Part shown: piece after piece, positions 4,505-23,410 of the stretch
Layout: each line of letters begins with the position of its first letter
How positions within the stretch are numbered: the stretch's first letter is position 1
Position numbers and translations under genes: made by a program
NCBI GenBank assembly: GCA_028293325.1
Contig: JAQGPA010000138.1
Coordinates: 1 to 45,379, forward strand
Reading direction: 5' to 3'
Length of the DNA: 45,379 nucleotides
From: Pedosphaera sp.
GTDB lineage: Bacteria > Verrucomicrobiota > Verrucomicrobiia > Limisphaerales > Pedosphaeraceae
Notes under the pieces: generated by a model
The model's database searches: none
The model's input: only the letters and a program-made list of their open reading frames with translations
Told to the model about the DNA's origin: nothing

Positions 4505-7500
4505 ATGTCACATGCTGACTTTGTCCATTTGCACCTGCACACCGAGTTTTCCCTGCTCGATGGTGCCTGCCGCCTTGACCGGCTCATGGACAAAGCCCAC
4601 GAACTTAAACTCCCTGCCCTCGCCATCACCGACCACGGCGTGCTCTATGGCGCAATTGATTTTTACAAGGCCGCGCGCGAAAAAGGCATCAAGCCCATCA
4701 TCGGCTGCGAAGTTTACGTGGCCCCCGGCAGCCGGTTCGACAAAAAGAGCAATAACGGCGGTCGCGACGTCTATAACCATCTCGTCCTGCTCGCCAAGGA
4801 TGAAACCGGCTACAAAAACCTCATCAAACTGGCCACCGCCGCCCATTTGGAGGGCTACTATTACAAGCCGCGCATCGATAAGGAACTGCTCGCCGCCCAC
4901 AAGGAAGGCCTCATTGCGCTCTCCGGCTGTCTCGCCAGCGAAATCCCGGAAAATATTCTCAAGGATCAGTTGCCCAAGGCCCGCGAATCACTCGATTGGT
5001 TCAAGCAAACGCTCGGCGCGGAAAATTTCTACCTCGAATTGCAGAACCACGGCATTCCGGAACAGGCCAAGGTCAATCGCCAGTTGATCCCCTGGGCCAA
5101 GGAGTTCGGCCTGAAACTCGTTGCCTCCAACGACGTCCATTACGTCGAGCAGGGCAACTCCCACGCGCACGACTGCCTCATCTGCATCGGCACGCAGGCG
5201 ATGCTCGCCGACACCAAGCGCATGACCTATGTGCCGGAGCAATTCTATCTGCGCTCCGCCGCCGAGATGAAGGCCCGTTTCAGCGAAACGCCCGAGGCCG
5301 TGCAAAATACCTTGGAAGTCGCGGAAAAATGCAACCTCGAGATCGAGTTTAACAAGCTCCATTACCCCGTCTTCCACCCGCCCGAGCATTTCACCCGTGA
5401 AGGTTTTCTCCGTCAACTGCTCGCGGAAGGCCTGCATCGCCGTTACACCATTCAGGCGGAAGCAAAAGGCCAGGAATTCATCATCACGTCCATTGCAGAT
5501 CCCACGCGACTGCCGACGTATCAAGCGCCGAATGAACCACCCCCTGCCAGCGGCTATGACCTTAACCATCCCGCCCTCGCCGCCGCCATCAAGGTGGTCA
5601 TCGACCGTTTACAGGTTGAACTCACGGTCATCGAAAAAACCGGTTTCATCTCCTACTTCCTCATCGTCGCGGATTTCATTCGTTATGGACGGGAAAAGGG
5701 CATCTCCTGCGTGGCTCGTGGTTCCGCCGCCGGTTCGCTTGTCACCTATCTACTCGACATCGCCAACGTGGACCCGATCCGTTACGGCCTCCTTTTCGAG
5801 CGCTTCCTGAATCCCGAACGCGTCAACCCGCCCGATATCGACATCGACTTCGCCGACGACCGCCGCGCCGATGTCATCGAATACGTCCGCAAAAAATACG
5901 GCAACGATTCCGTTGCCCAGATCGTGACCTTCGGCACGATGGGCGCCAAGTCCGTCGTGCGCGATGTCGGCCGCGTCATGGGCTTGAGCTACGGCGAATG
6001 CGACCGCCTGGCCAAGATGATCCCGACCGATTTGAAGATGGACTTGGCCAAGGCGCTGAAACAATCGCCGGAGCTCAAGACCGCTTACGACACCGAGGAA
6101 GTCACCCGCGAATTGATCGATACCGCTTTCGTGCTTGAGGACATCACTCGCAATGCCTCGGTCCACGCCGCCGGCGTCGTCATCGGCGATCAACCGCTCG
6201 TCAATCTGCTCCCGCTTAAGGTGGACGAGGACGGCACCCTGGTCACGCAATACGCGATGAACCCGGTCGGCGAACTCGGCCTGCTCAAAATGGATTTCCT
6301 CGGGTTGAAGACCCTGACCGTCATCCGCAACACCTGCGAGATGGTCAAGGCCACCAAGGGCATCGATGTCCCCATCGACAATCTGCCGCTCGATGACGCC
6401 AAGACCTACGACCTCCTGAATCACGCCCAGACGCTTGGCGTGTTCCAATTGGAATCCAGCGGGATGCGCGATTTGTGCCGCAAGTTTCAAATCAGCTCCG
6501 TCGAACACATCACGGCGTTGATCGCGCTCTACCGTCCCGGCCCGATGGACCTGATTCCAGAATTCATCAAACGCCGCCACGGCGAGGTGAAAATCGAATA
6601 CGAACACGCCTTGCTCGAACCGATTTGCCGCGAGACCTATGGCATCATGGTTTATCAGGAGCAGGTCATGCAAGCCACCCAGGTGCTGGCCGGCTACACG
6701 CTCGGCGGCGCTGATTTGTTGCGCCGCGCCATGGGCAAGAAAAAAGTCGAGGAAATGCAGAAGCAGCGCGACACCTTCGTGAAGGGTTGCGCCAAAACGA
6801 ACGGCATCGCCGCCGGCAAGGCCAACCAGATTTTCGATTTGCTGGAAAAATTCGCCGGTTACGGCTTCAACAAGTCGCACGCCGCCGCCTACGCCATCGT
6901 CGCCTATCAAACGGCCTATCTAAAGGCGAATTACCCCGTCGAGTTCCTCAGCGCCATGATGACGAACGACATGGGCGACACCAAGAAACTCGGCGAGTTC
7001 ATCAACGAAGCGCGCGTCATGAGCATCGAAGTGCTCCCGCCTGACGTCAACGAAAGTCAGATCGTCTTCGCCCCCGCGCGCAACGGCCAGGTCATCCGCT
7101 TCGGCATGGCCGCCATCAAAGGTGTGGGCGAAATCGCCGTCCAAAGCATTCTCGACGCCCGCAAACTGGCCGGCGAATTTAACACTCTCGCCAACCTCTG
7201 CGAACGCGTCGATATCCGCACCGTCAACCGCAAAGCCCTGGAAGCTCTCATCAAATCCGGCGCGTGCGACACCTTCAAGGAAACCCGCGCCACTTTGTTC
7301 GCGCAGATTGACCGCACGTTGACCCGCGCCGCCGGCATCATTCAGGATCGCCAGCGCGGCCAAAGTTCCATGTTCGGCATGCTCGAGGAAAAGACCGAGC
7401 ACAAGCCGGAGACCATCGCCAAACTGCCCGAATGGCCGCAGCACGAACTGCTCGCCGCCGAAAAAGAATTGCTCGGCTTCTACGTCACGGGCCATCCGCT

Positions 7501-8140
7501 CACGCCTTACGCGCCGTTGCTCCAGAAATACGCGCTCACGAACACCGCCGGGCTCGCGGCCCTGCCTAATCGCAGTCTGACCCGCATCGGCGGCTTGGTC
7601 GCGGTGGTGCAACACGGCGTTTCCAAAAAGAGCAACAAGCCTTACGCCATGGTCACGCTCGAGGATCTCGAAGGCTCCGTGCAGATCCTCTGCATGAACG
7701 AGAATTACGACAAATACCGCGAACTGCTGCAACTGAACAAAGCCATCCTGGTCGTGGCCGAGGTCAATACCGGCGACGACAAACCAAAACTCTTTCCGCA
7801 GGAAATGATGCCGCTGGAGGATGCGCCCCGCAAATACACCAAGCAGGTCCATTTCCGCCTCCACACCGGCCGCCTCGAACCCGACAATATCCTCTCCGTG
7901 CAGGAACTGGCGCTCGCTTACCCCGGTAAATGTCCCCTGTTCCTTTGCCTCACCCGCCCCACCGGCGAGATAATCTTTATCGAGACCCACGAGAAATTCT
8001 CCGTGGCTCCCTCCATGAAATTGCAGCAGGCCGCCGACGAACGTTTCGGCAACGAAACCTATTACGCCAAGGTGGACACCGCCTTACCCGAACGCACTCC
8101 GCGCCATTGGGAACAACGCCGTGGCAATGGCGACGATTAA
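4505..8140 (+). CDS. dnaE: DNA polymerase III subunit alpha
   Basis: 1211 aa. N-terminal PHP domain ([22 protein letters not shown]). Polymerase core and fingers ([22 protein letters not shown]). OB-fold C-terminal region. TAA stop. Confidence 0.97.
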
Positions 8141-10939: not shown

Positions 10940-12754
10940 TTAGCTACTTTTGGCAGCCGCTTTGGCAGTCGTTTGGTCACGGACCATCAAGCCGATGAGT
11001 CCATCCACCAATCCACTGCTCCCGTTCGTGCCGGTCACGGAAACATCCGGCACAATTCGCACGTTGCGCTCCCCCACGATCTGCATCAACTGCATCACCG
11101 TGTAGCCCTGCGCCCCGATCGCTTCCACGCCCACGCGATACGCTTCCGCTTTCGCATTGCCCGTGGCCCGGATGGCCTCAGCTTCGCCCAACGCCCGCAG
11201 CCGGGTGGCTTCCGCCTCGCCGGTCGCCTGCTTGATGTGCGCGCCCGCCTGCAACTCGGCGATGTTCACGCCCTGTTCCGCGCCCACCACCTGTTGCTGG
11301 ATATCCGCCACCGCGGTTTCCCGCACGAGTCGCTGCCGCTGCTTCTGCGCCGCTTCCTGCACCTCGTACGTCTTGCGTTGTTCTTCCGCGATCTTCCGTT
11401 CCGTTTGCGTCTCCATCAACGTCGCCGGCGGATTGATGTCTCCAATCAGCGTGTCAATCGCCTGCACGTCGTAAGCCGCCAACGCGACCCGGATATGCTG
11501 CGCCGCTTCCGTCTGCCGCTCGCTGCGCGCGCTCAGGAAGTCCAGCACCGTGTAGTGCTGCGCGGAATTGCGGAAATAATTTCCCACAATCGGCTGCAGC
11601 ACATGGTCCACCAGGTTCTGCATCGAACCCACCCGGGAGATCACCTTCGGCGCATCGAGCGCGCCCACATGGATGATCTGCGCCACGTCCAGGTTGAACC
11701 CGAACCCGTCGCGCGACCGCACCGTGATCGACGACAATTTTGCGTCATAATTATGGGACTCGGTCCGCGAGGCCCAGTTGAGCACGATATTCGTCGTCGG
11801 CACGCGTTCCACTTTCATGATGCGCGTGTTGACCGGATGTTTGCCCGGATACAGCGGCGTGACCCACACGCCTTTGTGACCCGTATTCACCAGGTCGCCA
11901 TGCTTAAACTCCAGACCGCTCACATCTTCATGTGCCATCCCCACAAACGAGATGACCACGCCAACATGCCCGATCGGAATCTCCAGCATCGGCACCTGTT
12001 CCACCTGGACAAACCACGGGTTCAGATTCCACGTGCCGGACAGCAGGATCTGCTCCTGCAATCCGCGCCGTCCGCCGCCCGCCAGAAATGCCTGCGCATT
12101 CTGGAAGTTGTCATGCGTCGGTATCAGCGGCCCGGCAATCTCGCCCTGCTCAATGGGCCGCCCGTCCAGCGTCGTCACAATGCCCACCCGATCCGGCAGC
12201 ACATGATGCAACAGCAGTTGTTCCGGCTGCATCCCATGTTGCTGCGCATCATAAGATGCGATGACCGTGAACAACGCCGTGTTGATCCGATACGTTCCCG
12301 CCGTGAGAATGCCCAACTGCCGGCCTTTCTCGCCGCCAGAAACCAGGAATTTCCGCGCATCCTGAAAGTTGTCGCAATCGACCACCTGGCCCAGGATGCG
12401 TTCCGAAGGTATGGCCGCGCCGTCCGCCGCCACCACCAACGCGATTTCACCCTGTGGCACCATGATCACGCCAACCTTGATGATCCGATACTGCCAACGC
12501 CAAAAACCGAAATGCAGTCCTGGCGCCAACGTATCCGCCTGATACCCTGCCTCGCCGCTCAAGGCAACGAGTTGACCTGGCTTAAGCGAACGTCCGGAGA
12601 ATCGCTTGATGACAATTCCCACCTGCCGCTCGCGAATCAGCACTGTGCCGAAGACCAACGGCCCAACCAGAAACAACAACGCGCAAACTGTGATTGCGCT
12701 AGCGATGAAAAACGATGATTCCACCGCTCCCACAAATGTAATGATAGCCAACAT
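10940..12754 (-). CDS. flotillin / SPFH (band-7) domain protein, YqiK-like
   Basis: N-terminal transmembrane helix, SPFH domain, then a long Ala/Glu/Gln-rich coiled-coil (AEQGVNIAELQAGAHIKQATGEAEATRLRALGEAEAIRATGNAKAEAYR). The start is placed at the internal ATG (MLAIITF...) preceded by GAAGG; the ORF-track start at 12883 is probably too far upstream. TAA stop. Confidence 0.8.
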   Translation of the reverse strand: MLAIITFVGAVESSFFIASAITVCALLFLVGPLVFGTVLIRERQVGIVIKRFSGRSLKPGQLVALSGEAGYQADTLAPGLHFGFWRWQYRIIKVGVIMVPQGEIALVVAADGAAIPSERILGQVVDCDNFQDARKFLVSGGEKGRQLGILTAGTYRINTALFTVIASYDAQQHGMQPEQLLLHHVLPDRVGIVTTLDGRPIEQGEIAGPLIPTHDNFQNAQAFLAGGGRRGLQEQILLSGTWNLNPWFVQVEQVPMLEIPIGHVGVVISFVGMAHEDVSGLEFKHGDLVNTGHKGVWVTPLYPGKHPVNTRIMKVERVPTTNIVLNWASRTESHNYDAKLSSITVRSRDGFGFNLDVAQIIHVGALDAPKVISRVGSMQNLVDHVLQPIVGNYFRNSAQHYTVLDFLSARSERQTEAAQHIRVALAAYDVQAIDTLIGDINPPATLMETQTERKIAEEQRKTYEVQEAAQKQRQRLVRETAVADIQQQVVGAEQGVNIAELQAGAHIKQATGEAEATRLRALGEAEAIRATGNAKAEAYRVGVEAIGAQGYTVMQLMQIVGERNVRIVPDVSVTGTNGSSGLVDGLIGLMVRDQTTAKAAAKSS

Positions 12755-13068
12755 AATGAACCTTCTGATGTGGTTGGCGCTCCGCGCGTTTGTTTGCACC
12801 CATGCCGGACGGCTGCACCGCCGGCACAGTTGCCGCGCAATGCGACAACGCTTACTCTGTTGGGGTGACCGTGAGTGCCGCAACTTGCGGCCTTAGAGGA
12901 TCGCCCTTCCAATTGCCGACGAGGTTAGCTGACGGGCTTGGTCCTGGAAGTGACCTTGGCCACGGTTACCCGCGGCCTTGCGCCCCATCCCCGGAATTTC
13001 TCCCGGGGAATTTGGTTCCCCCGCGCCAGCCCTCAGGAAGGAAGGCCGGCTTAGGCTGCTACTGTTTC

Positions 13069-15559: not shown

Positions 15560-15937
15560 CTGAGAATTAAAGAAACGCCTGATTTTATTAGGTGAACGTG
15601 GATTGTGAATAACTCGTGAATAAAAGTTAATATGTTGTCCTCGTAACATGAACACGATTGGAATAAAAAGTAGCACCTCGGTGAGATTTCGTAAGCTGTC
15701 GTTTACTCTCGAAAAGTGCGAACCGGGATTTTTGGGTCGGATTATACGTAAGTAATTGAAACAAATGAATTTGCGCAGCGTAATTAGAGTCACGGCAGCG
15801 GTGAAGAATGGGTCTACGATTGATTTTGTTGGTTTGCCGGCGAATTCGGATTATAAAAGCATCGCAAAGGAAGTGTTACAGGCTCGTTACGGGGTTAGGT
15901 GAATAAAACGCCCGAAAATAGGGCGAATGGGATAATA
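15560..15937. other. AT-rich region upstream of dnaA with DnaA-box-like motifs (candidate oriC or dnaA autoregulatory region)
   Basis: tgtgaataa (15604-15612) is the reverse complement of TTATTCACA, which fits TTATNCACA. Near-matches cgtgaataa (15616-15624) and ggtgaataa (15898-15906). GC content is visibly lower than flanking genes. Confidence 0.35.
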
Positions 15938-17299
15938 ATGATGCAATCTTCTGCCGATAAAGTCTGGACTGCAGCGCAACAACAATTGCGCTCCATGTTG
16001 AGTCCGGACACTTTCAATCTCTGGTTCGCCCCGCTGCGCGCACAGACCCTGGATGCCGAATGCATCACCCTCGAGGTCGCCAATGATTTCTGCGAGGTCT
16101 GGCTTAAGGACAACTACATGGGCCTGCTGCAGGACGTGTTGTCGCGTTCTTCCGGCCAACCGATGCATGTTAAATTCAAAGTCGTGCCGGGTGGCGCTGT
16201 TGTCACCGCGCCCATCACGCACGCCAGCCACGCCAAAGCCAAGCCCGCGGAAACCGCCACCGAGCGCACCTCCGCTGAACTCGCGTTCAATCCCAAAAAC
16301 ACTTTCGACAGCTTCGTCGTTGGCAATAACAATAATTTCGCCCATGCCGCCGCCATGGCGGTCGCCCAGGCGCCCGGCAAATCCTACAATCCGCTGTTTC
16401 TTTATGGCGGTGTCGGTCTTGGCAAAACTCACTTGCTCCACGCCATCGGCCAGCATGTCGTCAGCCAAAGAAAAGGCGCGCGCGTTTCCTACGTCTCCTC
16501 GGAAAAATTTACCAACGAGTACATCGACGGCATCCAGAACAACCAACTCGCCCGTTTCCGGAAGAAATATCGCCAGACCGAAGTCTTGTTGATCGATGAC
16601 ATCCAATTCCTGGCCGGCAAGGAACGCATCCAGGAGGAATTTTTCCATACCTTCAACGCCCTGCACGAATCGCATAAACAAATCGTCCTCACGTGCGACC
16701 GTCCCGCCAGTGAAATCCAAAACCTCGAGCAACGCCTCGTCTCCCGTTTCGAATGGGGTTTGGTCACGGATTTGCAGCCGCCCGATATCGAGACTCGCCT
16801 GGCCATCCTGCGGAAAAAAGCCAAGTCTCTCGGCGTGGAACTGCCCGAGGAGATTATTAATTTCCTGGCGCATCGCATTCGCGCCAACATCCGCCGCCTG
16901 GAAGGCGCCTTGATCCGCGTCGCTTCCTACGCCTCGCTGACCGGCAAGAAATTGAGCATTGAAGTCGTGGAAGGCTTGTTGCGCGAAGTGCTGCACGAAG
17001 AAGGCCGCTTTTCCATCAACATTGAAGTCATCCAAAAGCGCGTGGCCGAGCATTATGATATTCGCCTGGCCGACATGACCAGCAAGCGCCGTCCGGAAAA
17101 TATCGCCTTTCCCCGTCAGGTGGCCATGTTCCTCTCCCGCCAAATGACGGAAAGCTCCCTCAACACCATCGGTGAAGCCTTTGGCGGACGCGATCACGGC
17201 ACTGTCCTCCACGCCTGCCGGCTCGTCAAAGACCGCATGGAAGTGGACGCCAATGTCCGCCAGGTGGTGCAATATCTGGAAAAGCAGTTGCTCCGTTGA
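15938..17299 (+). CDS. dnaA: chromosomal replication initiator protein DnaA
   Basis: N-terminal DnaA domain I (VWTAAQQQLRSMLSPDTFNLWFAPL). AAA+ Walker A GGVGLGKTHLL and Walker B LLIDDIQF. C-terminal DNA-binding domain IV (VAMFLSRQMTESSLNTIGEAFGGRDHGTVLHA). The start is placed at the ATG ATG pair; the ORF track begins at an upstream GTG. Confidence 0.95.
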   Translation: MMQSSADKVWTAAQQQLRSMLSPDTFNLWFAPLRAQTLDAECITLEVANDFCEVWLKDNYMGLLQDVLSRSSGQPMHVKFKVVPGGAVVTAPITHASHAKAKPAETATERTSAELAFNPKNTFDSFVVGNNNNFAHAAAMAVAQAPGKSYNPLFLYGGVGLGKTHLLHAIGQHVVSQRKGARVSYVSSEKFTNEYIDGIQNNQLARFRKKYRQTEVLLIDDIQFLAGKERIQEEFFHTFNALHESHKQIVLTCDRPASEIQNLEQRLVSRFEWGLVTDLQPPDIETRLAILRKKAKSLGVELPEEIINFLAHRIRANIRRLEGALIRVASYASLTGKKLSIEVVEGLLREVLHEEGRFSINIEVIQKRVAEHYDIRLADMTSKRRPENIAFPRQVAMFLSRQMTESSLNTIGEAFGGRDHGTVLHACRLVKDRMEVDANVRQVVQYLEKQLLR

Positions 17300-18393: not shown

Positions 18394-19074
18394 TTACTCC
18401 ACGCGGACGTTAGCCTCCAACGCCCGCACTTCAGCCAAACTGGCGTTCACTTCATTGCGCGGCAAATTTCCCGCCTCCAATGTGGCGTCACTCAGACGCA
18501 ACAGCCGTTCGTAGAACATAATTCCTTCGGAGATTAAAGCCGCATTGCCCGGCTCGACATCAAGCAGCGCAAATAACGCATCTTCCGCCTGCGCATAAGC
18601 CCCCATGCGTTCGTAATAACGCCACAACGCCGCCTGCGTGCGCGTCGGCAAAGGCGCATCCAGCAACTGCTGGCGCAATACTTCAATGCGGGGAACAAAA
18701 CCGGGAAGTTCCAGGTCCGTATCCTGCAATTGCAATGTCAGCAACAAGTTCAGCGCCTTCAGCAAACAGTCCTGACTTTGCGCCTCCCGCTGTGCCGCAG
18801 CATGAACCTGGCCGGCTTCCTGCAGCAAAGCCACCAGCAGCAGGCTTTTTTCGCGGAACACATGGGTCGGGTCGCCGACCGTGAGCTTCGCCAGCAGTTC
18901 AGTTTCGGAAAGCTGGCTGACCGCTTCCGCCCCGGTTCCGATCAGGTCAAGAAACGCCTGGTCCAGACCCGCGCCCGCCTCGGCATATTGCCGCGCGTCG
19001 AGTTGCCCCCGAATGCGCATGATGCTCTGCACGCACTGCTCGATCATGCGGAGAAGGTAATCCCGGCGAATCAT
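18394..19074 (-). CDS. conserved hypothetical protein (helical, no recognisable catalytic motif)
   Basis: 226-aa ORF with good coding periodicity, divergent from the 19345 cluster. No motif recognised with confidence. Confidence 0.45.
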   Translation of the reverse strand: MIRRDYLLRMIEQCVQSIMRIRGQLDARQYAEAGAGLDQAFLDLIGTGAEAVSQLSETELLAKLTVGDPTHVFREKSLLLVALLQEAGQVHAAAQREAQSQDCLLKALNLLLTLQLQDTDLELPGFVPRIEVLRQQLLDAPLPTRTQAALWRYYERMGAYAQAEDALFALLDVEPGNAALISEGIMFYERLLRLSDATLEAGNLPRNEVNASLAEVRALEANVRVE

Positions 19075-19344
19075 GCGTGTTTAAAGAGTAAATTTCCCAA
19101 GGCGACAGTCATTTTCGGGTCGGCGGTTTCAGCACCTTCCTTTCCTACACCAATTGGGCAAAACGGAGTGGTTGTCAATGCGCCAATTCGTCGAAACTTT
19201 TGCATCGTTTTTCGAAAAGTGGTGCGGAATATGCATCACTTTTCCAAAGGCCGCTTGTAATCGCAAAGGCCGTTTCTATAATGCAGAAAAAATGCGTGCT
19301 GTAGTAAATCAACCGGTGTTGCCTGTCAAACCCCTCGTTTTGGC

Positions 19345-20631
19345 ATGAAACGCAAAGCCACAACGGTCAATCGCCGCCCCTCCATCATGGTGCTGGGTGT
19401 CGGTTCCTTTGCCCATAGCGCCGCCCAGATCCTCCAGGACAATGGCGCGCAGGTTTCGACCTATCTGACGCGCAATTACGGCCATTTTCCACCGTCACTG
19501 GTCGGCCCCACCTACACCCAGGAGCGCTTTCCCAATCCCTGTTCGTTGCTCAAGGAAAAGCAGGTGGATTTGGTGCTGCCCATGTCCATTGATTGGGCAC
19601 AGGCGCCGTGGAAAGACGAATTGCTGGCCGGCAAGACCCCCATTTTTTGCCCCACCGGCGAAGGGATGCGCATCGAGCGCGAACGCGACTTTGCCCGCAA
19701 ACTTTGCCACGATTTCAAAATCCCCTTTCCCAAGGCGCATGTTGCGCCCAACCGTCTCGCCGCGGAAAAACTGCTCAAGCAACACGCCCGCCCTTACGTC
19801 ATCAAGAATCCGCTCTGCTCCCCGACGAGCCCCATTCACACCATTCTGTGCGAAACAGTGGAGGATACCCGCTCCTGGCTTAAGAACATCAATTACGCAG
19901 AAGGCGTCTTTCTCCAGGAATACATGGGTCGCGCCGAGGCGGGGCACATCGCGCTCATCAGCGGCGGTGAGATTTATCCGCTCGTCACGAACCAGGAATA
20001 CAAACGCGCCTTCTCTGGTGACATGGGCGTGGTCGCCGGCGCGCCGCTCGGCGGGTTGGTGGAAAAAGACCCGGGCGACAAATACGGCCTCGCCCGTACG
20101 TTGCTTAATCCGTTGCGACCCTGGTTTCGCGCCGTGAATTATCACGGCCCCATTCAGGTCACGGCGGTCTGCCGCAATCGCAAATGGTACGTCATCGAAT
20201 ATAATATTCGCATTGGCGTCACTTCCGGCGCCATGATCCTGCGGATGCTTGCCAATCCCATCGAGACCCTGCTGCGCACCGCGCAAAACAAAAAATTGGA
20301 CCTGAATTTCAAGCCCGATTGGAACTTTGGCTGTTCCGTTACACTCGCCGGCTACGGCTATCCCTACGTGCAACAACGCGGTCCGCAATTGCCGGTCGAA
20401 ACCACCGGACCATTTGACCCGGATTGCGATGTCTGGTGGAATGAAGTCGCGCGGAACGGCGATGGCAAATTATTCACCACGGGCCATCGCATCGCCGACG
20501 TCATTGCGTTCAGCCCGTCGCTGGACGGCGCGATCCAGAAGGCCTATGCGAACATCCGCAAAATTCGCAGCCTCGGCAGTTATCATCGGGTGGACATTGG
20601 CCGGAGTCTCTGGCCGCCGGGAAACAGCTAA
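19345..20631 (+). CDS. PurD-like ATP-grasp ligase (divergent phosphoribosylamine-glycine ligase family paralog)
   Basis: 428 aa, colinear with PurD. N-terminal Rossmann-like MVLGVGSFAHSAAQIL corresponds to PurD VLVIGSGGREHALA. Central ATP-grasp region. C-terminal ...YHRVDIGRSLW corresponds to PurD ...CRKDIGWRA. Several PurD signature residues are replaced, so it is probably not a bona fide purD. Confidence 0.55.
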   Translation: MKRKATTVNRRPSIMVLGVGSFAHSAAQILQDNGAQVSTYLTRNYGHFPPSLVGPTYTQERFPNPCSLLKEKQVDLVLPMSIDWAQAPWKDELLAGKTPIFCPTGEGMRIERERDFARKLCHDFKIPFPKAHVAPNRLAAEKLLKQHARPYVIKNPLCSPTSPIHTILCETVEDTRSWLKNINYAEGVFLQEYMGRAEAGHIALISGGEIYPLVTNQEYKRAFSGDMGVVAGAPLGGLVEKDPGDKYGLARTLLNPLRPWFRAVNYHGPIQVTAVCRNRKWYVIEYNIRIGVTSGAMILRMLANPIETLLRTAQNKKLDLNFKPDWNFGCSVTLAGYGYPYVQQRGPQLPVETTGPFDPDCDVWWNEVARNGDGKLFTTGHRIADVIAFSPSLDGAIQKAYANIRKIRSLGSYHRVDIGRSLWPPGNS

Positions 20632-20637
20632 ACCATA

Positions 20638-21837
20638 ATGTCGCAAACCATGTCTGAGACGATTCCAACTCGCGGCCCGCTGCCGCCCGAACCCGTCGTG
20701 ACCAAACGGCCGTCGCGCTCCGCGTGGATTGAGGTGGACTTGTCGCGGCTCCGGCAAAATTACCAGGCCATCAACCAGGACAGACCCAAAGGCGTTCAGT
20801 TTCTCTCCGTCATCAAAGACGAAGCCTATGGCCACGGAGCTTTCGCGGTGGGCAAGGTGGCCCTGGAATGCGGGGCCGCCTTCCTCGCGCTGAGCAATGT
20901 CGATGAAGCCCTGACGCTACGGCAGCGTGGCATTCAGTCGCCTCTCTTGTTGTTGGGCGAACGGCAGGCAGCCGAGTTGTCCTGTTGCATCGAGCATAAT
21001 TTGACCTGTTGCGTCAACGACCTCCACACCGCGGAAAAACTCGGCCAACTCGCCGCGAACGCCGGCCGCCGGGTGCCGGTTCATCTCAAAATCAACACCG
21101 GCATGAACCGTTATGGTATTCGTTGGACGGATGCCCTGCCGTTGGTCGAAAAAATCTGCGCCATCAAATCACTCGCGTTGGAAGGCGTCCTGAGCCATTT
21201 CTCAATGTCCGACGAACTGGACAAGACTTTTGCGCTGCTGCAGCTCGAACGCTTCACCCAGATCCTTTCGGGCATGGCCAAGCGCGGCCTCTCCGTGAAA
21301 TATCGCCACCTCTGCAACAGCGGCGGCTTTCTCGATCTCCCCCAGGCCCATTTCGACATGGTGCGCATCGGCATGCTGCAACTCGGCGTTTATCCTTCCA
21401 AGGTTTGCCGGCGCATCAACGGCATCGCGCCCATCATGTCGGTCAAGGCCCGCGTCGCCGCCCTGCAAAGCATTCAAAAGGACGACGTCGTCGGCTACGG
21501 CATGCGCTATCAAGCCGCATCGCCGCGCCGCATCGCCGTGATCCCCGTGGGTTACGGCGACGGCTTCCCGCGCGTTCGCAATCAGGGCTGCGTGCTCATC
21601 GGCGGCAAACGCGCCCCGCTCGTCGGCGGTGTGGCCATGGACGCCCTCACCGTGGATGTCACCGACTTGCCGGCCGTCCAACTCTGGGATGAAGTCGTGC
21701 TCATGGGCCGCCAGGGCACTGAGGAAATTTCCGTGAACGAAGTCGCGCAGTGGAAAAATTCCGTCTCCTACGACGTCCTCGCCGGCTGGCGCGCGCGCCT
21801 GCCGCGAATTTACGTCAATGAACCAGGCACCGCATGA
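20638..21837 (+). CDS. alr: alanine racemase (PLP-dependent, fold type III)
   Basis: PLP-lysine motif VIKDEAYGHG, a second-domain conserved Tyr region, 399 aa. The start is 6 nt after the upstream gene. Its stop overlaps the next start (ATGA). Confidence 0.85.
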   Translation: MSQTMSETIPTRGPLPPEPVVTKRPSRSAWIEVDLSRLRQNYQAINQDRPKGVQFLSVIKDEAYGHGAFAVGKVALECGAAFLALSNVDEALTLRQRGIQSPLLLLGERQAAELSCCIEHNLTCCVNDLHTAEKLGQLAANAGRRVPVHLKINTGMNRYGIRWTDALPLVEKICAIKSLALEGVLSHFSMSDELDKTFALLQLERFTQILSGMAKRGLSVKYRHLCNSGGFLDLPQAHFDMVRIGMLQLGVYPSKVCRRINGIAPIMSVKARVAALQSIQKDDVVGYGMRYQAASPRRIAVIPVGYGDGFPRVRNQGCVLIGGKRAPLVGGVAMDALTVDVTDLPAVQLWDEVVLMGRQGTEEISVNEVAQWKNSVSYDVLAGWRARLPRIYVNEPGTA

Positions 21838-22637
21838 AACTGCTTTTCTCCGAACATAAGGCCGACTACGCCCATTATATTTTTCCGTATGCCATCTGGG
21901 GCATTCCCGAGGCGGGTGAAACCCCGGGCGATTTCTTTAATCAAGGCTTTCTCCCCTCCTCGCGCGACCTGGACCGCTTCTATCTCTGCCGCCATGTGCG
22001 CGTCAATTTAAAGGATTACACCGCCTCCTCCGAGAACCGCCGTATCTTGCGCAAAGGCGATGGCATCACCGTCACGCTCATCCCGCGCGCGGAGTTCGAT
22101 TACAACGCCCAGCGCCGCGAGTTCTACAAAACCTATGCCGACATCAAGTTCGGCAAGGACATGATGACCTACGAGCGCCTCGATTCGCTCTTCAGCGGCA
22201 AGATCACCTCGCACCTCCTCGTTTTCACCGACACCAAATCCGGCGCGGAAATCGGCACCGTCACGCTCTACCTCGAGCAAAACCGGATGGCCTATTATTA
22301 CTACGCTTTTTACGACCTGAAGTATTACAGCCGCAATCTCGGCATGTTCATGATGACCTCCGCCGTGGAATTCTTCGCGGAACGCGGCTTGGAATCACTC
22401 TACCTGGGCTCCTGTTATTCCCAGAACGCGCTCTACAAAACCCAGTTCGAAGGCGCGCAATTTTTCAACGGTGTCCGCTGGTCCAATCTCCTCGACGAAT
22501 TGAAATATCTCATCCGCCGCGAAGACGGCGAAGTCCGCCAGCATCTTCTGGAAACCGAGGAATACCGCCAGCTCTTCTACGCCGCCGACCTCAGCAACAT
22601 CATCTCAGCCAGTCAATTTCAGGTGAAACTTAAATAG
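21834..22637 (+). CDS. ATE/Bpt-family aminoacyl-tRNA-protein transferase homolog (arginyl-/leucyl-transferase-like)
   Basis: 267 aa. The C-terminal region carries an ATE_C-like motif LGSCYSQNALYKTQF (cf. LGYYI...KxxYKxxF). GNAT-like fold length is typical of bacterial Bpt. Translationally coupled to alr. Confidence 0.55.
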   Translation: MKLLFSEHKADYAHYIFPYAIWGIPEAGETPGDFFNQGFLPSSRDLDRFYLCRHVRVNLKDYTASSENRRILRKGDGITVTLIPRAEFDYNAQRREFYKTYADIKFGKDMMTYERLDSLFSGKITSHLLVFTDTKSGAEIGTVTLYLEQNRMAYYYYAFYDLKYYSRNLGMFMMTSAVEFFAERGLESLYLGSCYSQNALYKTQFEGAQFFNGVRWSNLLDELKYLIRREDGEVRQHLLETEEYRQLFYAADLSNIISASQFQVKLK

Positions 22638-22729: not shown

Positions 22730-23410
22730 CTAGTCATTCCTGACCAGGCTGACTCTCCTAATATTGATTCTGCCGAACGGTAAATTCCGCGCGCGCTCCA
22801 GCATTGCGGCCAACTGTTCGCCGTCGTGCAGGTGGGCGTGAAACCGGACCACGGTCATGTGCGCGGTTTGCAGCCGATATCGCGTATCCACTCCTTCCGC
22901 CAGCCCGCGCAATCGAAGCTGCCGACGCAAGGAGTCACGCACCTCATTGAGCGCCTCGTTTTCCACAAAGCCCTGGATCATGATTGCGCCCGGGGACGCA
23001 GTAACGCCCTTAAATTGAATCCGGATCGGCGCCGCTTTCCGCAAGGCCATATCCACCGCCGCCATGTATTGCTCCGTTTTGGCAAAGAATCGCGCAGGCT
23101 CGACTGTCGCGGTAAACAGTGAAAGCAGCGTCAGGTGAAGTTCCGAAGGCGCATAATAATGTTGCTCCGGTTCCAGGGCTCTCAATTGCCCCAAAAATGC
23201 CGCGATGCGCTTGCGCACGTTGGAATCAGGCCGGGCAATCAACGTCAAACCGCGACGTCGGTCGGGCCTCCCCGCCGCCAGGACCGGATCCTGATCAATA
23301 TCCCCAGTCCGCAATTTCCCGACGGTTGCTTTCCACAATCGATCGTACCGATTTTGCATGCGTTGGCGAACATCGCTCCTGCTCACTTGATTCCGTCCGC
23401 GTTCGTTCAT
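22730..23410 (-). CDS. 2H phosphoesterase superfamily protein (LigT/ThpR-like 2-prime,5-prime RNA ligase / cyclic phosphodiesterase fold)
   Basis: Two H-x-T-x motifs, HLTL and HMTV, separated by about 90 aa, as in LigT. Confidence 0.55.
   Translation of the reverse strand: MNERGRNQVSRSDVRQRMQNRYDRLWKATVGKLRTGDIDQDPVLAAGRPDRRRGLTLIARPDSNVRKRIAAFLGQLRALEPEQHYYAPSELHLTLLSLFTATVEPARFFAKTEQYMAAVDMALRKAAPIRIQFKGVTASPGAIMIQGFVENEALNEVRDSLRRQLRLRGLAEGVDTRYRLQTAHMTVVRFHAHLHDGEQLAAMLERARNLPFGRINIRRVSLVRND

Follow-up and report, generated by a model that had tools for sequence, protein, structure and literature searches.

A conserved alanine racemase-linked gene triad of Verrucomicrobiota with a possible role in peptidoglycan-linked aminoacyl transfer

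Described systems and the conserved triad

In Enterococcus faecium, the D-aspartate ligase Asl(fm) is reportedly encoded with an aspartate racemase, as Bellais et al. are said to have described in 2006 (J Biol Chem), and the ligase reportedly attaches this D-amino acid to a peptidoglycan (PG) precursor, at its side-chain amine. An ATP-grasp ligase is used for the D-amino acid there because tRNA transferases of the Fem type are known to accept only L-amino acids and glycine. The locus described here, from a soil Verrucomicrobium, likewise encodes an amino-acid racemase together with an ATP-grasp ligase; the two pairs differ in ATP-grasp subfamily, in racemase family and in host, that of Asl(fm) being Gram-positive. 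The ligase-like protein, P1, shares a four-domain ATP-grasp architecture with PurD (glycinamide ribonucleotide synthetase, EC 6.3.4.13; 1GSO, 2IP4, 2YS6, 2QK4), the two being colinear over about 410 residues; yet the Arg/Glu pair that contacts PRA in PurD is Phe/Ala in P1, the Asp/Glu pair that contacts glycine is Val/Ser, and P1 is linked to alr without any pur-gene context. A third protein, P3, bears a weak but consistent similarity to Bpt and eukaryotic ATE1 (PF04376/PF04377), with which it has in common a GNAT core, a Tyr-Lys pair and the SLGK and SENRRxxRK segments. However, its first 50 residues are without detectable counterpart in these enzymes, and the genomic context of its family is the cell wall, not N-degron machinery. 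Compared with FemX/FemABX/MurM (PF02388), P3 is about 100 residues shorter and Bpt/ATE-derived, and its family is found in Bacteroidota and Verrucomicrobiota, diderm phyla in which no interpeptide bridges are expected. Unlike MprF/aminoacyl-phosphatidylglycerol synthase (6LV0, 4V36; identity 11-12%), P3 is soluble and carries no flippase or membrane domain.

The window (the whole stretch of 45,379 nucleotides that was analysed) holds P1, alr and P3 as three co-directional ORFs (table 1). An earlier note on this DNA had read them as three such genes with a 6-nt gap and a 4-nt overlap, and the ORF coordinates agree: 6 nt separate P1 from alr, and the TGA of alr overlaps the ATG of P3 in an ATGA at 21834-21837. 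Co-translation, which the same note drew from the overlap, fits the window but is not universal, since the median alr-to-P3 gap in related loci is about 76 nt; in L158 and L159 both junctions of the triad are overlaps, of 8 nt and 4 nt. A sigma-70-like site lies about 63 nt 5' of the P1 start codon, and as the regional count of promoter-like sites is not above shuffled expectation, it is only a candidate. The second gene is the canonical PLP alanine racemase that the note had taken it for, with 338 bits against TIGR00492 (cut-off 168), 204 bits for Ala_racemase_N and 134 bits for Ala_racemase_C in Pfam, and a PLP lysine (sviKdeayghg) and catalytic tyrosine (vvgYgmry) that align with those of solved alanine racemases (8ZPE). 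By homology, Alr is shown to interconvert L-Ala and D-Ala.

Table 1. Positions of the triad and of adjoining features in the window
Feature	Coordinates	Strand	Description
Sigma-70-like promoter candidate	19255..19282	+	TTGTAA, 16 nt spacer, TATAAT; 10/12 matches
P1	19345..20631	+	PurD-lineage ATP-grasp carboxylate-amine ligase paralogue, 428 aa, stop TAA
alr	20638..21837	+	PLP-dependent alanine racemase, 399 aa, N-terminal extension of ~25 aa
P3	21834..22637	+	Cys-less Bpt/ATE-superfamily GNAT-fold protein, 267 aa; putative aminoacyl-tRNA-dependent aminoacyl transferase
2H phosphoesterase (LigT/ThpR-like)	22730..23410	-	Pfam 2_5_RNA_ligase2, 37 bits; convergent neighbour only

Synteny was assessed in 80 related loci, 73 of them informative for alr and 53 for P1. 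The unit is conserved, and relatives with the same arrangement do exist: alr lies upstream of P3 on the same strand in 67/73 loci, and P1 lies upstream in 46/53. Among the window neighbours, dnaA, DUF6483, the 2H phosphoesterase and pyrR recur in 0/80 related loci; for the ABC ATPase, pyrB and mrp there are only 4, 2 and 1 matches, most of them weak. The 2H phosphoesterase gene reported to abut the cluster is thus real, but it is no member of the conserved unit. Because the linkage of alr and P1 to P3 is kept while the other neighbours are essentially absent, the three-gene arrangement is under selection and is more than a chance juxtaposition, with part of the synteny inherited, given that the Verrucomicrobial loci all come from one order-level clade.

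At 66-77% identity, the triad occurs in the genomes of at least 313 species, and across the order the median identity is 69% for both P1 and P3 against 63% for Alr; that the two are better conserved than Alr is typical of proteins with a core function. This bears on a reading that takes up the "tailoring pathway" of the earlier note and in which the triad, by analogy with tRNA-dependent and ATP-grasp enzymes of peptide natural products, would make a soluble small molecule unrelated to the wall, for instance a dipeptide containing D-Ala or a conjugate of an amino acid. Such a product is unlikely: this spread and conservation are unlike those of accessory metabolite clusters, no transporter, tailoring, regulator or resistance gene is conserved alongside the triad in the loci examined, and relatives of P3 reside within dcw and PG-recycling operons, as set out below.

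P3 and the genomic contexts of its family

The placement of P3 in the ATE/Bpt aminoacyl-tRNA transferase superfamily, made in the earlier note from its motif, holds, though below all curated cut-offs. The ATE_C match reaches 21.7 bits (gathering score 25), and the NCBIfam arginyltransferase/Bpt models (NF002341-7) reach at most 43 bits against cut-offs of 170-358, the Bpt-type models aligning across residues 51-220; within the P3 family, 50 of the 60 members match ATE_C at E <=0.01, the best at E = 3e-10. Pfam returned no ATE_N domain in P3, residues 1-60 contain no Cys4 metal site or conserved Cys motif (the one Cys there is non-conserved), and in hhalign the N-terminal segment of ATE1 finds no counterpart in P3. 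When the 60-member family profile was aligned by hhalign with S. cerevisiae ATE1 (its sequence verified against 8E3S), P3 132-206 paired with ATE1 235-308 at a probability of 58%, a match confined to the C-terminal core. Within it, Y201-K202 of P3 fall on Y303-K304 of ATE1; the 60 relatives share only four invariant columns, of which Y201 and K202 make up two. In K. lactis Ate1 both Y303F and K304A are inactive, and K304 is equivalent to K305 of FemX (PMC9351520). The arginine-pocket positions of ATE1 (S255, S273, E277 and Y289) are Y155, M173, A177 and L189 in P3; the predicted donor pocket is hydrophobic, resembling that reported for the Leu-transferring Bpt, and the pocket for an acidic N-terminus may also be gone. 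P3 retains the SLGK motif and the Arg/Lys-rich SENRRxxRK segment, a possible equivalent of the tRNA-binding helix in ATE1. Its GFLPSS stretch resembles GFRRSG, by eye only.

Structurally, P3 is closest to MprF, ATE1 and FemX, in a model of moderate confidence (mean pLDDT 68) that leaves residues 1-51 unmodelled, and FemAB (PF02388) finds no sequence match in P3 or in any of its 60 relatives. From fold and conserved residues only, we infer that P3 would use an aminoacyl-tRNA as donor.

The P3 family is an uncharacterised one that recurs among cell-wall genes in two phyla. In Bacteroidota, distant P3-like genes sit within the dcw cluster, in the order ftsW-murG-[P3-like]-251 aa-ftsA-ftsZ, as seen in Marinilongibacter aquaticus and, at identities that fall to about 53%, in about 31 metagenome loci. 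In other loci of this phylum (L082, L155, L156 and, in part, L128), a P3-like gene follows Peptidase_S66 (LdcA-like), an MR_MLE dipeptide-epimerase-like gene and Peptidase_S13 (PBP4) and so closes an ldcA-epimerase-dacB operon, the run being preceded in L155 by a glmS-like gene. A GlmM-type mutase stands directly 5' of the P3-like gene in L065 (Verrucomicrobia) and in L153, a MurC/Mpl-like ligase overlaps its start in L130, NlpC/P60 lies directly 3' of it in L154, and mreB is its divergent neighbour in three loci. PG genes were found nowhere near the P3-like gene in L151, L152, L157, L119 and others, and in a Verrucomicrobial locus, L068, clpP-clpX lies directly upstream, which hints at proteolysis instead. 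Among the targets that the earlier note had offered (a metabolite, a cell-wall precursor or a protein N-terminus), these contexts point to the cell wall. P1 does not occur in the Bacteroidota contexts, and of the 46 loci where it lies upstream, 22 have other genes (0.7-6.6 kb) between it and alr; its functional tie to P3 is therefore weaker than that between alr and P3.

The clpP-clpX pair is the contextual argument for P3 as a Bpt-type N-degron transferase, which would append Leu or another destabilising residue to the N-termini of proteins for Clp degradation and leave the adjacency to alr and P1 without mechanistic meaning. The retained catalytic Tyr-Lys would suit such an enzyme, as would the restriction of sequence-family matches to ATE_C and the bacterial arginyltransferase/Bpt models and the naming of many members by JGI as arginyl- or leucyl-tRNA-protein transferase. 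Yet the scores stay far below the curated Bpt cut-offs, neither ATE_N nor a conserved N-terminal Cys motif was detected, the recurrent neighbours of the family are PG genes and not clpS, clpA or aat, and the linkage to alr persists despite reshuffled flanks. We thus regard this function as quite improbable. Very improbable, too, is that P3 is an ordinary acyl-CoA-dependent GNAT N-acetyltransferase, acting for example on D-Ala, an amino sugar or a murein fragment.

P1, a PurD relative with altered binding residues

The earlier note had described P1 as colinear with PurD but lacking several PurD signature residues, and profile scores and residue alignment confirm both points. P1 scores 104.1 bits with TIGR00877 (purD), below the curated equivalog cut-off of 288, while remaining colinear with model positions 3-421 and keeping the N-B-A-C domain order; in Pfam it matches GARS_A (31.9 bits) and GARS_C (42.2 bits), and GARS_N matches neither P1 nor any of the 120 homologues closest to it. 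Against solved PurDs it scores 42-94 bits, whereas these score 215-777 bits against E. coli PurD, and its identity to PurDs from five phyla is only 22-28%. A Foldseek search with the P1 model, which is of low confidence, returned PurD structures as its top 15 matches.

In PurD, GGREHA supplies an Arg and a Glu for contact with the phosphate and ribose of PRA (PMC2978367), the contacts for PRA and glycine have been named (PMC2978367, PMC8880213), and the GLAAGKG B-loop over the ATP gamma-phosphate is conserved among PurDs (PMC2978367). The residues that are swapped in P1 are conserved from bacteria to human in PurDs (PMC2978367, PMC8880213; solved-PurD comparison). In P1, GGREHA reads GSFAHS (by hhalign, E. 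coli G7-N-G-G-R11-E12-H-A against P1 G18-V-G-S-F22-A23-H-S); RFGDPE reads R289-I-G-V292-T-S294, with loss of the glycine-binding/general-base Asp and Glu; QDHKR, whose Asp is counted with these residues, reads Q-E218-Y-K220-R; the B-loop reads N155-P-L-C-S-P-T-S-P163; and HAGT reads WNEV. The replacements, F22, A23, V292, S294 and NPLCSPTSP included, are themselves invariant among 20 family members. Conversely, R114, K154, E192, E198, K220, E285, N287, R289 and R382 are kept, and with them the ATP-grasp core: the lysines and glutamates for ATP, the Mg ligands of E-x-N, R289 as the acyl-phosphate Arg and R382 as that of the C domain. The residue check proposed earlier thus separates replaced PRA and glycine contacts from retained ATP, Mg and acyl-phosphate residues, and by its sequence P1 falls beyond the orthologues of PurD. 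Neither the window nor 159 loci, each covering 10 kb on either side of the matched gene, contained a canonical purD, regions too small for this absence to be informative, and no pur genes lie near P1 in the window or in any locus examined.

That P1 is nonetheless the divergent but functional PurD of the lineage, adjacent to alr by inherited synteny, is scarcely tenable: PurD is its only detectable homology, at full-length colinearity, and the source annotation is phosphoribosylamine-glycine ligase, but its score is about one-third of the curated cut-off, R11/E12 (E. coli numbering), the RFGDPE Asp and Glu, GLAAGKG and HAGT are swapped for invariant others, the pur genes are missing from its surroundings, and it stays linked to alr-P3 as the flanks change.

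A tentative function for the triad

Overall, we tentatively propose, with a probability of roughly 45%, that P3 is a peptidoglycan-linked tRNA-dependent aminoacyl transferase, coupled here to D-Ala supply and to a neofunctionalised ligase, in a conserved operon of Limisphaerales/Pedosphaera-type Verrucomicrobiota whose most likely target would be PG precursors or murein peptides. In a FemX-like role played with Bpt/ATE-derived hardware, P3 would pass the aminoacyl group of a charged tRNA onto a cell-wall intermediate, at a free amine. P1 would be a ligase driven by ATP that has kept acyl-phosphate formation and lost the binding of glycine and phosphoribosylamine; it would probably join an amino acid to the same or a neighbouring acceptor, D-Ala made by Alr being the obvious candidate. 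The racemase and ATP-grasp D-Asp ligase of E. faecium provide a precedent for this proposed pairing of P1 and Alr. Counting against a PG target, these phyla are commonly taken to have PG of the unbranched mDAP type. A broader claim is doubtful, namely that the P3 family forms an unrecognised Bpt/ATE-derived PG-modifying lineage in Bacteroidota and Verrucomicrobiota, to which Limisphaerales also recruited a PurD-derived ligase for D-Ala or another amino acid.

If the proposal is true, tRNA-dependent cell-wall chemistry would have a third evolutionary solution, beside FemABX/MurM for the wall and MprF for membrane lipids, operating in Gram-negative phyla whose PG is taken to be plain. Under the broader claim, an undescribed aminoacyl branch or modification would be expected on the stem peptide or an amino-sugar precursor in these phyla. 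The proposal would also give a function to the gene that many division clusters of Cytophagia type carry between murG and the gene at the ftsQ position. P1, for its part, would represent a neofunctionalisation of PurD, otherwise a strictly single-function purine enzyme; this matters for annotation, as hundreds of metagenomic P1 copies are named phosphoribosylamine-glycine ligase, the label that public sources give to P1 homologues. Relatives of P3 are named GNAT N-acetyltransferase by NCBI.

Layout and synteny of the triad

Re-reading of the ORFs and junctions placed the three co-directional genes exactly where the earlier note had put them: a PurD-lineage ATP-grasp protein (P1), an alanine racemase (alr) and a Bpt/ATE-like GNAT-fold protein, a putative aminoacyl-tRNA transferase (P3). 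The racemase passes the alanine-racemase equivalog (338 bits vs 168), has both Pfam domains, and its PLP lysine and catalytic tyrosine align with those of solved racemases. A candidate sigma-70-like hexamer pair, a kind of site not enriched in the region, lies 63 nt 5' of P1; an Rfam search of the window found no riboswitch or leader RNA 5' of the operon, its sole match lying elsewhere in the window.

The best 80 genome loci fetched (66-77% identity) all derive from Verrucomicrobiia/Limisphaerales-type MAGs, and the window genes were located in them by tblastn. The tightest link is the alr-P3 pair, with alr 5' of P3 on the same strand in 67 of the 73 loci with enough sequence (median gap about 76 nt). 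P1 is found 5' of alr, same strand, in 46 of 53 loci; the gap between them is at most 400 nt in 24 loci, and in 22 other genes take up 0.7-6.6 kb between the two. In two fetched loci (L158 and L159) overlaps occur among all three genes. Median identity to the window proteins is 69% for P1 and P3 vs 63% for Alr. By tblastn, dnaA, pyrR and the DUF6483 and 2H phosphoesterase genes flanking the cluster occur in none of the 80 loci, and the ABC ATPase, pyrB and mrp gave 4, 2 and 1 matches, mostly weak. Since the triad is present and the flanking genes are missing in relatives, the triad stays together while its surroundings are reshuffled. The DUF6483 gene is not kept beside the cluster, and of the convergent phosphoesterase that the earlier note saw abutting it, the gene and its adjacency are genuine but not conserved: this adjacency is specific to the source genome of the window.

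No further partner gene sits consistently beside the triad across the Verrucomicrobial loci. Recurrent neighbours (a response regulator, the tRNA-dihydrouridine synthase Dus, a radical SAM enzyme resembling ThiH, a membrane protein lacking annotation, a ROK protein and a member of the aconitase family) vary in position and strand, and none is specific to peptidoglycan (PG). Dus and a stand-alone response-regulator receiver adjoin the triad in L158, L159 and about 18-27 of the 80 Verrucomicrobial loci (L001-L080), in variable placement and orientation, and both are missing from the window. The gene most often inserted between P1 and alr, on the opposite strand, encodes a polytopic membrane protein of roughly 590 aa that has no match in Pfam. 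The alr-P3 cluster also appears (67-70% identity) in MAGs titled Bifidobacteriaceae, Candidatus Sulfopaludibacter, Limnocylindrales, Acidiferrales and Aquilonibacter, which are probably mislabelled or contaminated bins.

Positions of the features discussed, in the window and in fetched loci (L numbers)
Feature	Location	Strand	Remarks
P1	window 19345-20631	+	ORF, 428 aa
alr	window 20638-21837	+	ORF, 399 aa; start 6 nt past P1 stop
P3	window 21834-22637	+	ORF, 267 aa; ATG overlaps alr TGA (ATGA)
2H phosphoesterase, LigT/ThpR-like	window 22730-23410	-	genuine ORF, convergent, abuts cluster
DUF6483 protein	window 18394-19074	-	70 bits; divergent neighbour upstream of P1
dnaE	window 4505-8140	+	
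SPFH/Band_7-domain protein	window 10940-12883	-	ORF, 647 aa
c-di-AMP (ydaO-type) riboswitch	window 12899-13067	-	61.8 bits vs gathering score 38
dnaA	window 15899-17299	+	
Dus and response-regulator receiver	L158 8398-9976; L159 7216-8794		
Polytopic membrane protein	L024 6703-8481	-	also about 20 other loci
alr-P3 in oddly titled MAG records	L009, L025, L036, L055, L059, L062, L072, L073, L075, L077		
P3-like in partial dcw cluster	L081 3720-10265; L085-L108, L112, L113, L142, others		Cytophagia-type Bacteroidota
S66-MR_MLE-S13-P3-like operon	L082 2633-7277; L155 1-5786; L156 1617-5750; L128 (partly)		

Cell-wall genes beside distant P3 relatives

A profile built on the 'GFLPYSG' subgroup of P3 (alignment A4, proteins of about 255 aa) retrieved Bacteroidota and Calditrichota proteins. 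In the division/cell-wall (dcw) cluster of Marinilongibacter aquaticus the order is ftsW, murG, a distant P3 family member (P3-like), a 251-aa protein, ftsA and ftsZ. About 31 of 66 metagenome loci repeat this order, the identity of their P3-like proteins falling to about 53%; these 66 loci were obtained with a narrower alignment (A5, not A4) and are biased to one Bacteroidota subgroup. In this Cytophagia-type arrangement, P3-like fills the slot usually murC's, between murG and ftsQ, the 251-aa protein, without Pfam match, occupies the ftsQ position, and mscL/DUF3078, rather than murD, precedes ftsW. In other lineages, P3-like closes an operon of Peptidase_S66 (an LdcA-like murein tetrapeptide carboxypeptidase), MR_MLE (L-Ala-D/L-Glu epimerase/DgcA-like, that is, dipeptide-epimerase-like) and Peptidase_S13 (PBP4/DacB), preceded in L155 by a glmS-like gene; the operon resembles a module for recycling murein peptides, in which P3-like is an unexplained fourth enzyme. 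A GlmM-type phosphohexosamine mutase lies directly 5' of a P3 homologue in L153 and in the Verrucomicrobial L065, in L130 the gene of a MurC/Mpl-like Mur ligase and the start of P3-like overlap, NlpC/P60 is found 3' of P3-like in L154, and three loci have mreB divergently beside it. Some P3-like loci have nothing wall-related nearby, and in one Verrucomicrobial locus clpP-clpX lie 5' of the gene. Together with the linkage to alr, these contexts make PG synthesis and recycling the recurring theme of the P3 family across two superphyla.

It is plausible to hypothesize that P3 would take an aminoacyl-tRNA whose residue is small or hydrophobic and acylate with it some free amine on a PG intermediate; candidate acceptors are an amino-sugar phosphate, the amine of the diamino acid in the stem peptide, and the N-terminus of a free murein peptide. 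Alr, by homology, supplies or removes D-Ala. P1, judging from the residues retained and lost, would form an acyl-phosphate from a non-glycine carboxylate and join it to an amine other than phosphoribosylamine (PRA), with D-Ala as the first candidate substrate because the neighbouring gene is alr. A precedent is found in E. faecium, where a racemase is paired with a D-Asp ligase of the ATP-grasp type. We place the probability of such a PG link for the cluster at 0.45. The tailoring pathway suggested in the earlier note, read as one for a soluble small molecule, seems improbable beside the dcw and recycling contexts.

The putative transferase core of P3

Window P3 alone matches ATE_C and Acetyltransf_6 just under the gathering scores, and its residues 51-220 align with seven NCBIfam models of bacterial arginyltransferases (Bpt-type), at at most 43 bits vs cut-offs of at least 170. 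The family is nonetheless large: 2,631 proteins of a 90%-clustered collection are related at E ≤1e-3 (the best 120 are 70-81% identical to P3), with 578 representatives at 50% clustering, and at least 313 species genomes in GTDB have relatives. In an alignment of 60 diverse members sharing 25-54% identity with P3, 50 match ATE_C (best E-value 3e-10), and no columns other than R56, Y201, K202 and G213 are invariant. When the 60-member profile was compared by hhalign with S. cerevisiae ATE1 (sequence verified against 8E3S), P3 132-206 fell on ATE1 235-308 (E 1e-4, probability 58%), and Y201-K202 on Y303-K304. The Y303F and K304A forms of K. lactis Ate1 have no activity, and its K304 corresponds to the FemX catalytic K305 and to the lysines of aminoacyl-phosphatidylglycerol synthases (PMC9351520). 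The ATE1 arginine pocket (S255, S273, E277, Y289) corresponds to Y155, M173, A177 and L189 in P3, hydrophobic donor-pocket positions like those described for the Leu-transferring Bpt. P3 gave no Pfam match to ATE_N and has no conserved Cys motif, and hhalign found no match between its family profile and the ATE1 N-terminal segment; because of the latter, an equivalence of ATE1 GFRRSG with P3 GFLPSS is not claimed. A P3 profile search of PDB sequences gave no more than weak ATE1 matches (E about 2), and a plasmid search found no P3 relative. With the core kept and ATE_N missing, P3 thus branches off the Bpt/ATE superfamily as a Cys-less form, its transferase core intact and its acceptor site probably different.

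A Bpt-type N-degron transferase would share the catalytic dyad, yet P3 fails the ATE/Bpt thresholds and N-domain features, and we consider this role quite unlikely. An acyl-CoA GNAT is slightly less likely still. P3 may resemble FemX in fold and context, but not in sequence.

P1 as a PurD relative, and other features of the window

The only Pfam matches of P1, barely over threshold, are GARS_A and GARS_C, with none to GARS_N; the NCBIfam purD equivalog (TIGR00877) aligns end to end, at 104 bits vs a cut-off of 288. Solved PurDs score 42-94 bits against P1, vs 215-777 bits (Thermotoga to human) against E. coli PurD, and PurDs of five phyla are 22-28% identical to P1 homologues. In an alignment of the family profile of P1 with E. 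coli PurD (checked against 1GSO: 429 residues, one mismatch), we took substrate-contact roles from structural papers (PMC2978367; PMC8880213). The ATP/Mg/acyl-phosphate residues are kept (R114, K154, E192, E198, K220, E285, N287, R289 and C-domain R382), whereas all PurD-specific substrate contacts are replaced: G-G-R-E-H-A by G-S-F22-A23-H-S, R-F-G-D-P-E by R-I-G-V292-T-S294, the B-loop G-L-A-A-G-K-G by P-L-C-S-P-T-S-P, H-A-G-T by W-N-E-V, and G-P-N-T-G-G-M-G by G-V-V-A-G-A-P-L-G-G. The replacement residues are invariant among 20 family members (71-82% identity), which argues for a new active site under constraint, not a decaying one. PurD structures were the top 15 Foldseek matches of the P1 AlphaFold model (pLDDT 57, shallow alignment), a low-confidence model used for nearest fold only, not residue geometry. 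The kept ATP core, the replaced contacts and the PurD fold together mark P1 as a PurD-lineage ATP-grasp ligase whose carboxylate and amine substrates probably differ from PurD's. P1 lacks four of the five PurD sequence and structure features tested, and by these it is not a PurD; a true PurD in incidental synteny is very improbable.

With E. coli PurD as query, tblastn of the fetched loci (10 kb each side of the matched gene) and the window recovered P1 homologues only, and with E. coli DdlB it gave no match there; the plasmid search returned canonical purD only, at 22-25% identity. Four cysteines (C121, C158, C169, C361) are invariant in the P1 family, one of them within NPLCSPTSPIH (155-165), the segment that stands in place of the Gly-rich B-loop of ATP-grasp enzymes; they may form a metal or redox site.

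A literature search of incomplete coverage found no account of the P3 family or its PG association, and a PVC dcw paper does not cover Pedosphaera. The boldest proposal, that diderm phyla have a new lineage of enzymes modifying PG in a tRNA-dependent way and that a PurD has been neofunctionalised, is tentative and, in our estimate, rather doubtful.

Elsewhere in the window, less than 8 kb separates dnaE from dnaA; a stretch of low GC content at 13-16 kb holds 8 DnaA-box matches (≤1 mismatch) vs 4.8 expected, that is, no enrichment, and cumulative GC skew has no turning point within the window. The ydaO-type riboswitch lies directly 5' of the SPFH/Band_7 ORF, an unusual cargo for this class.
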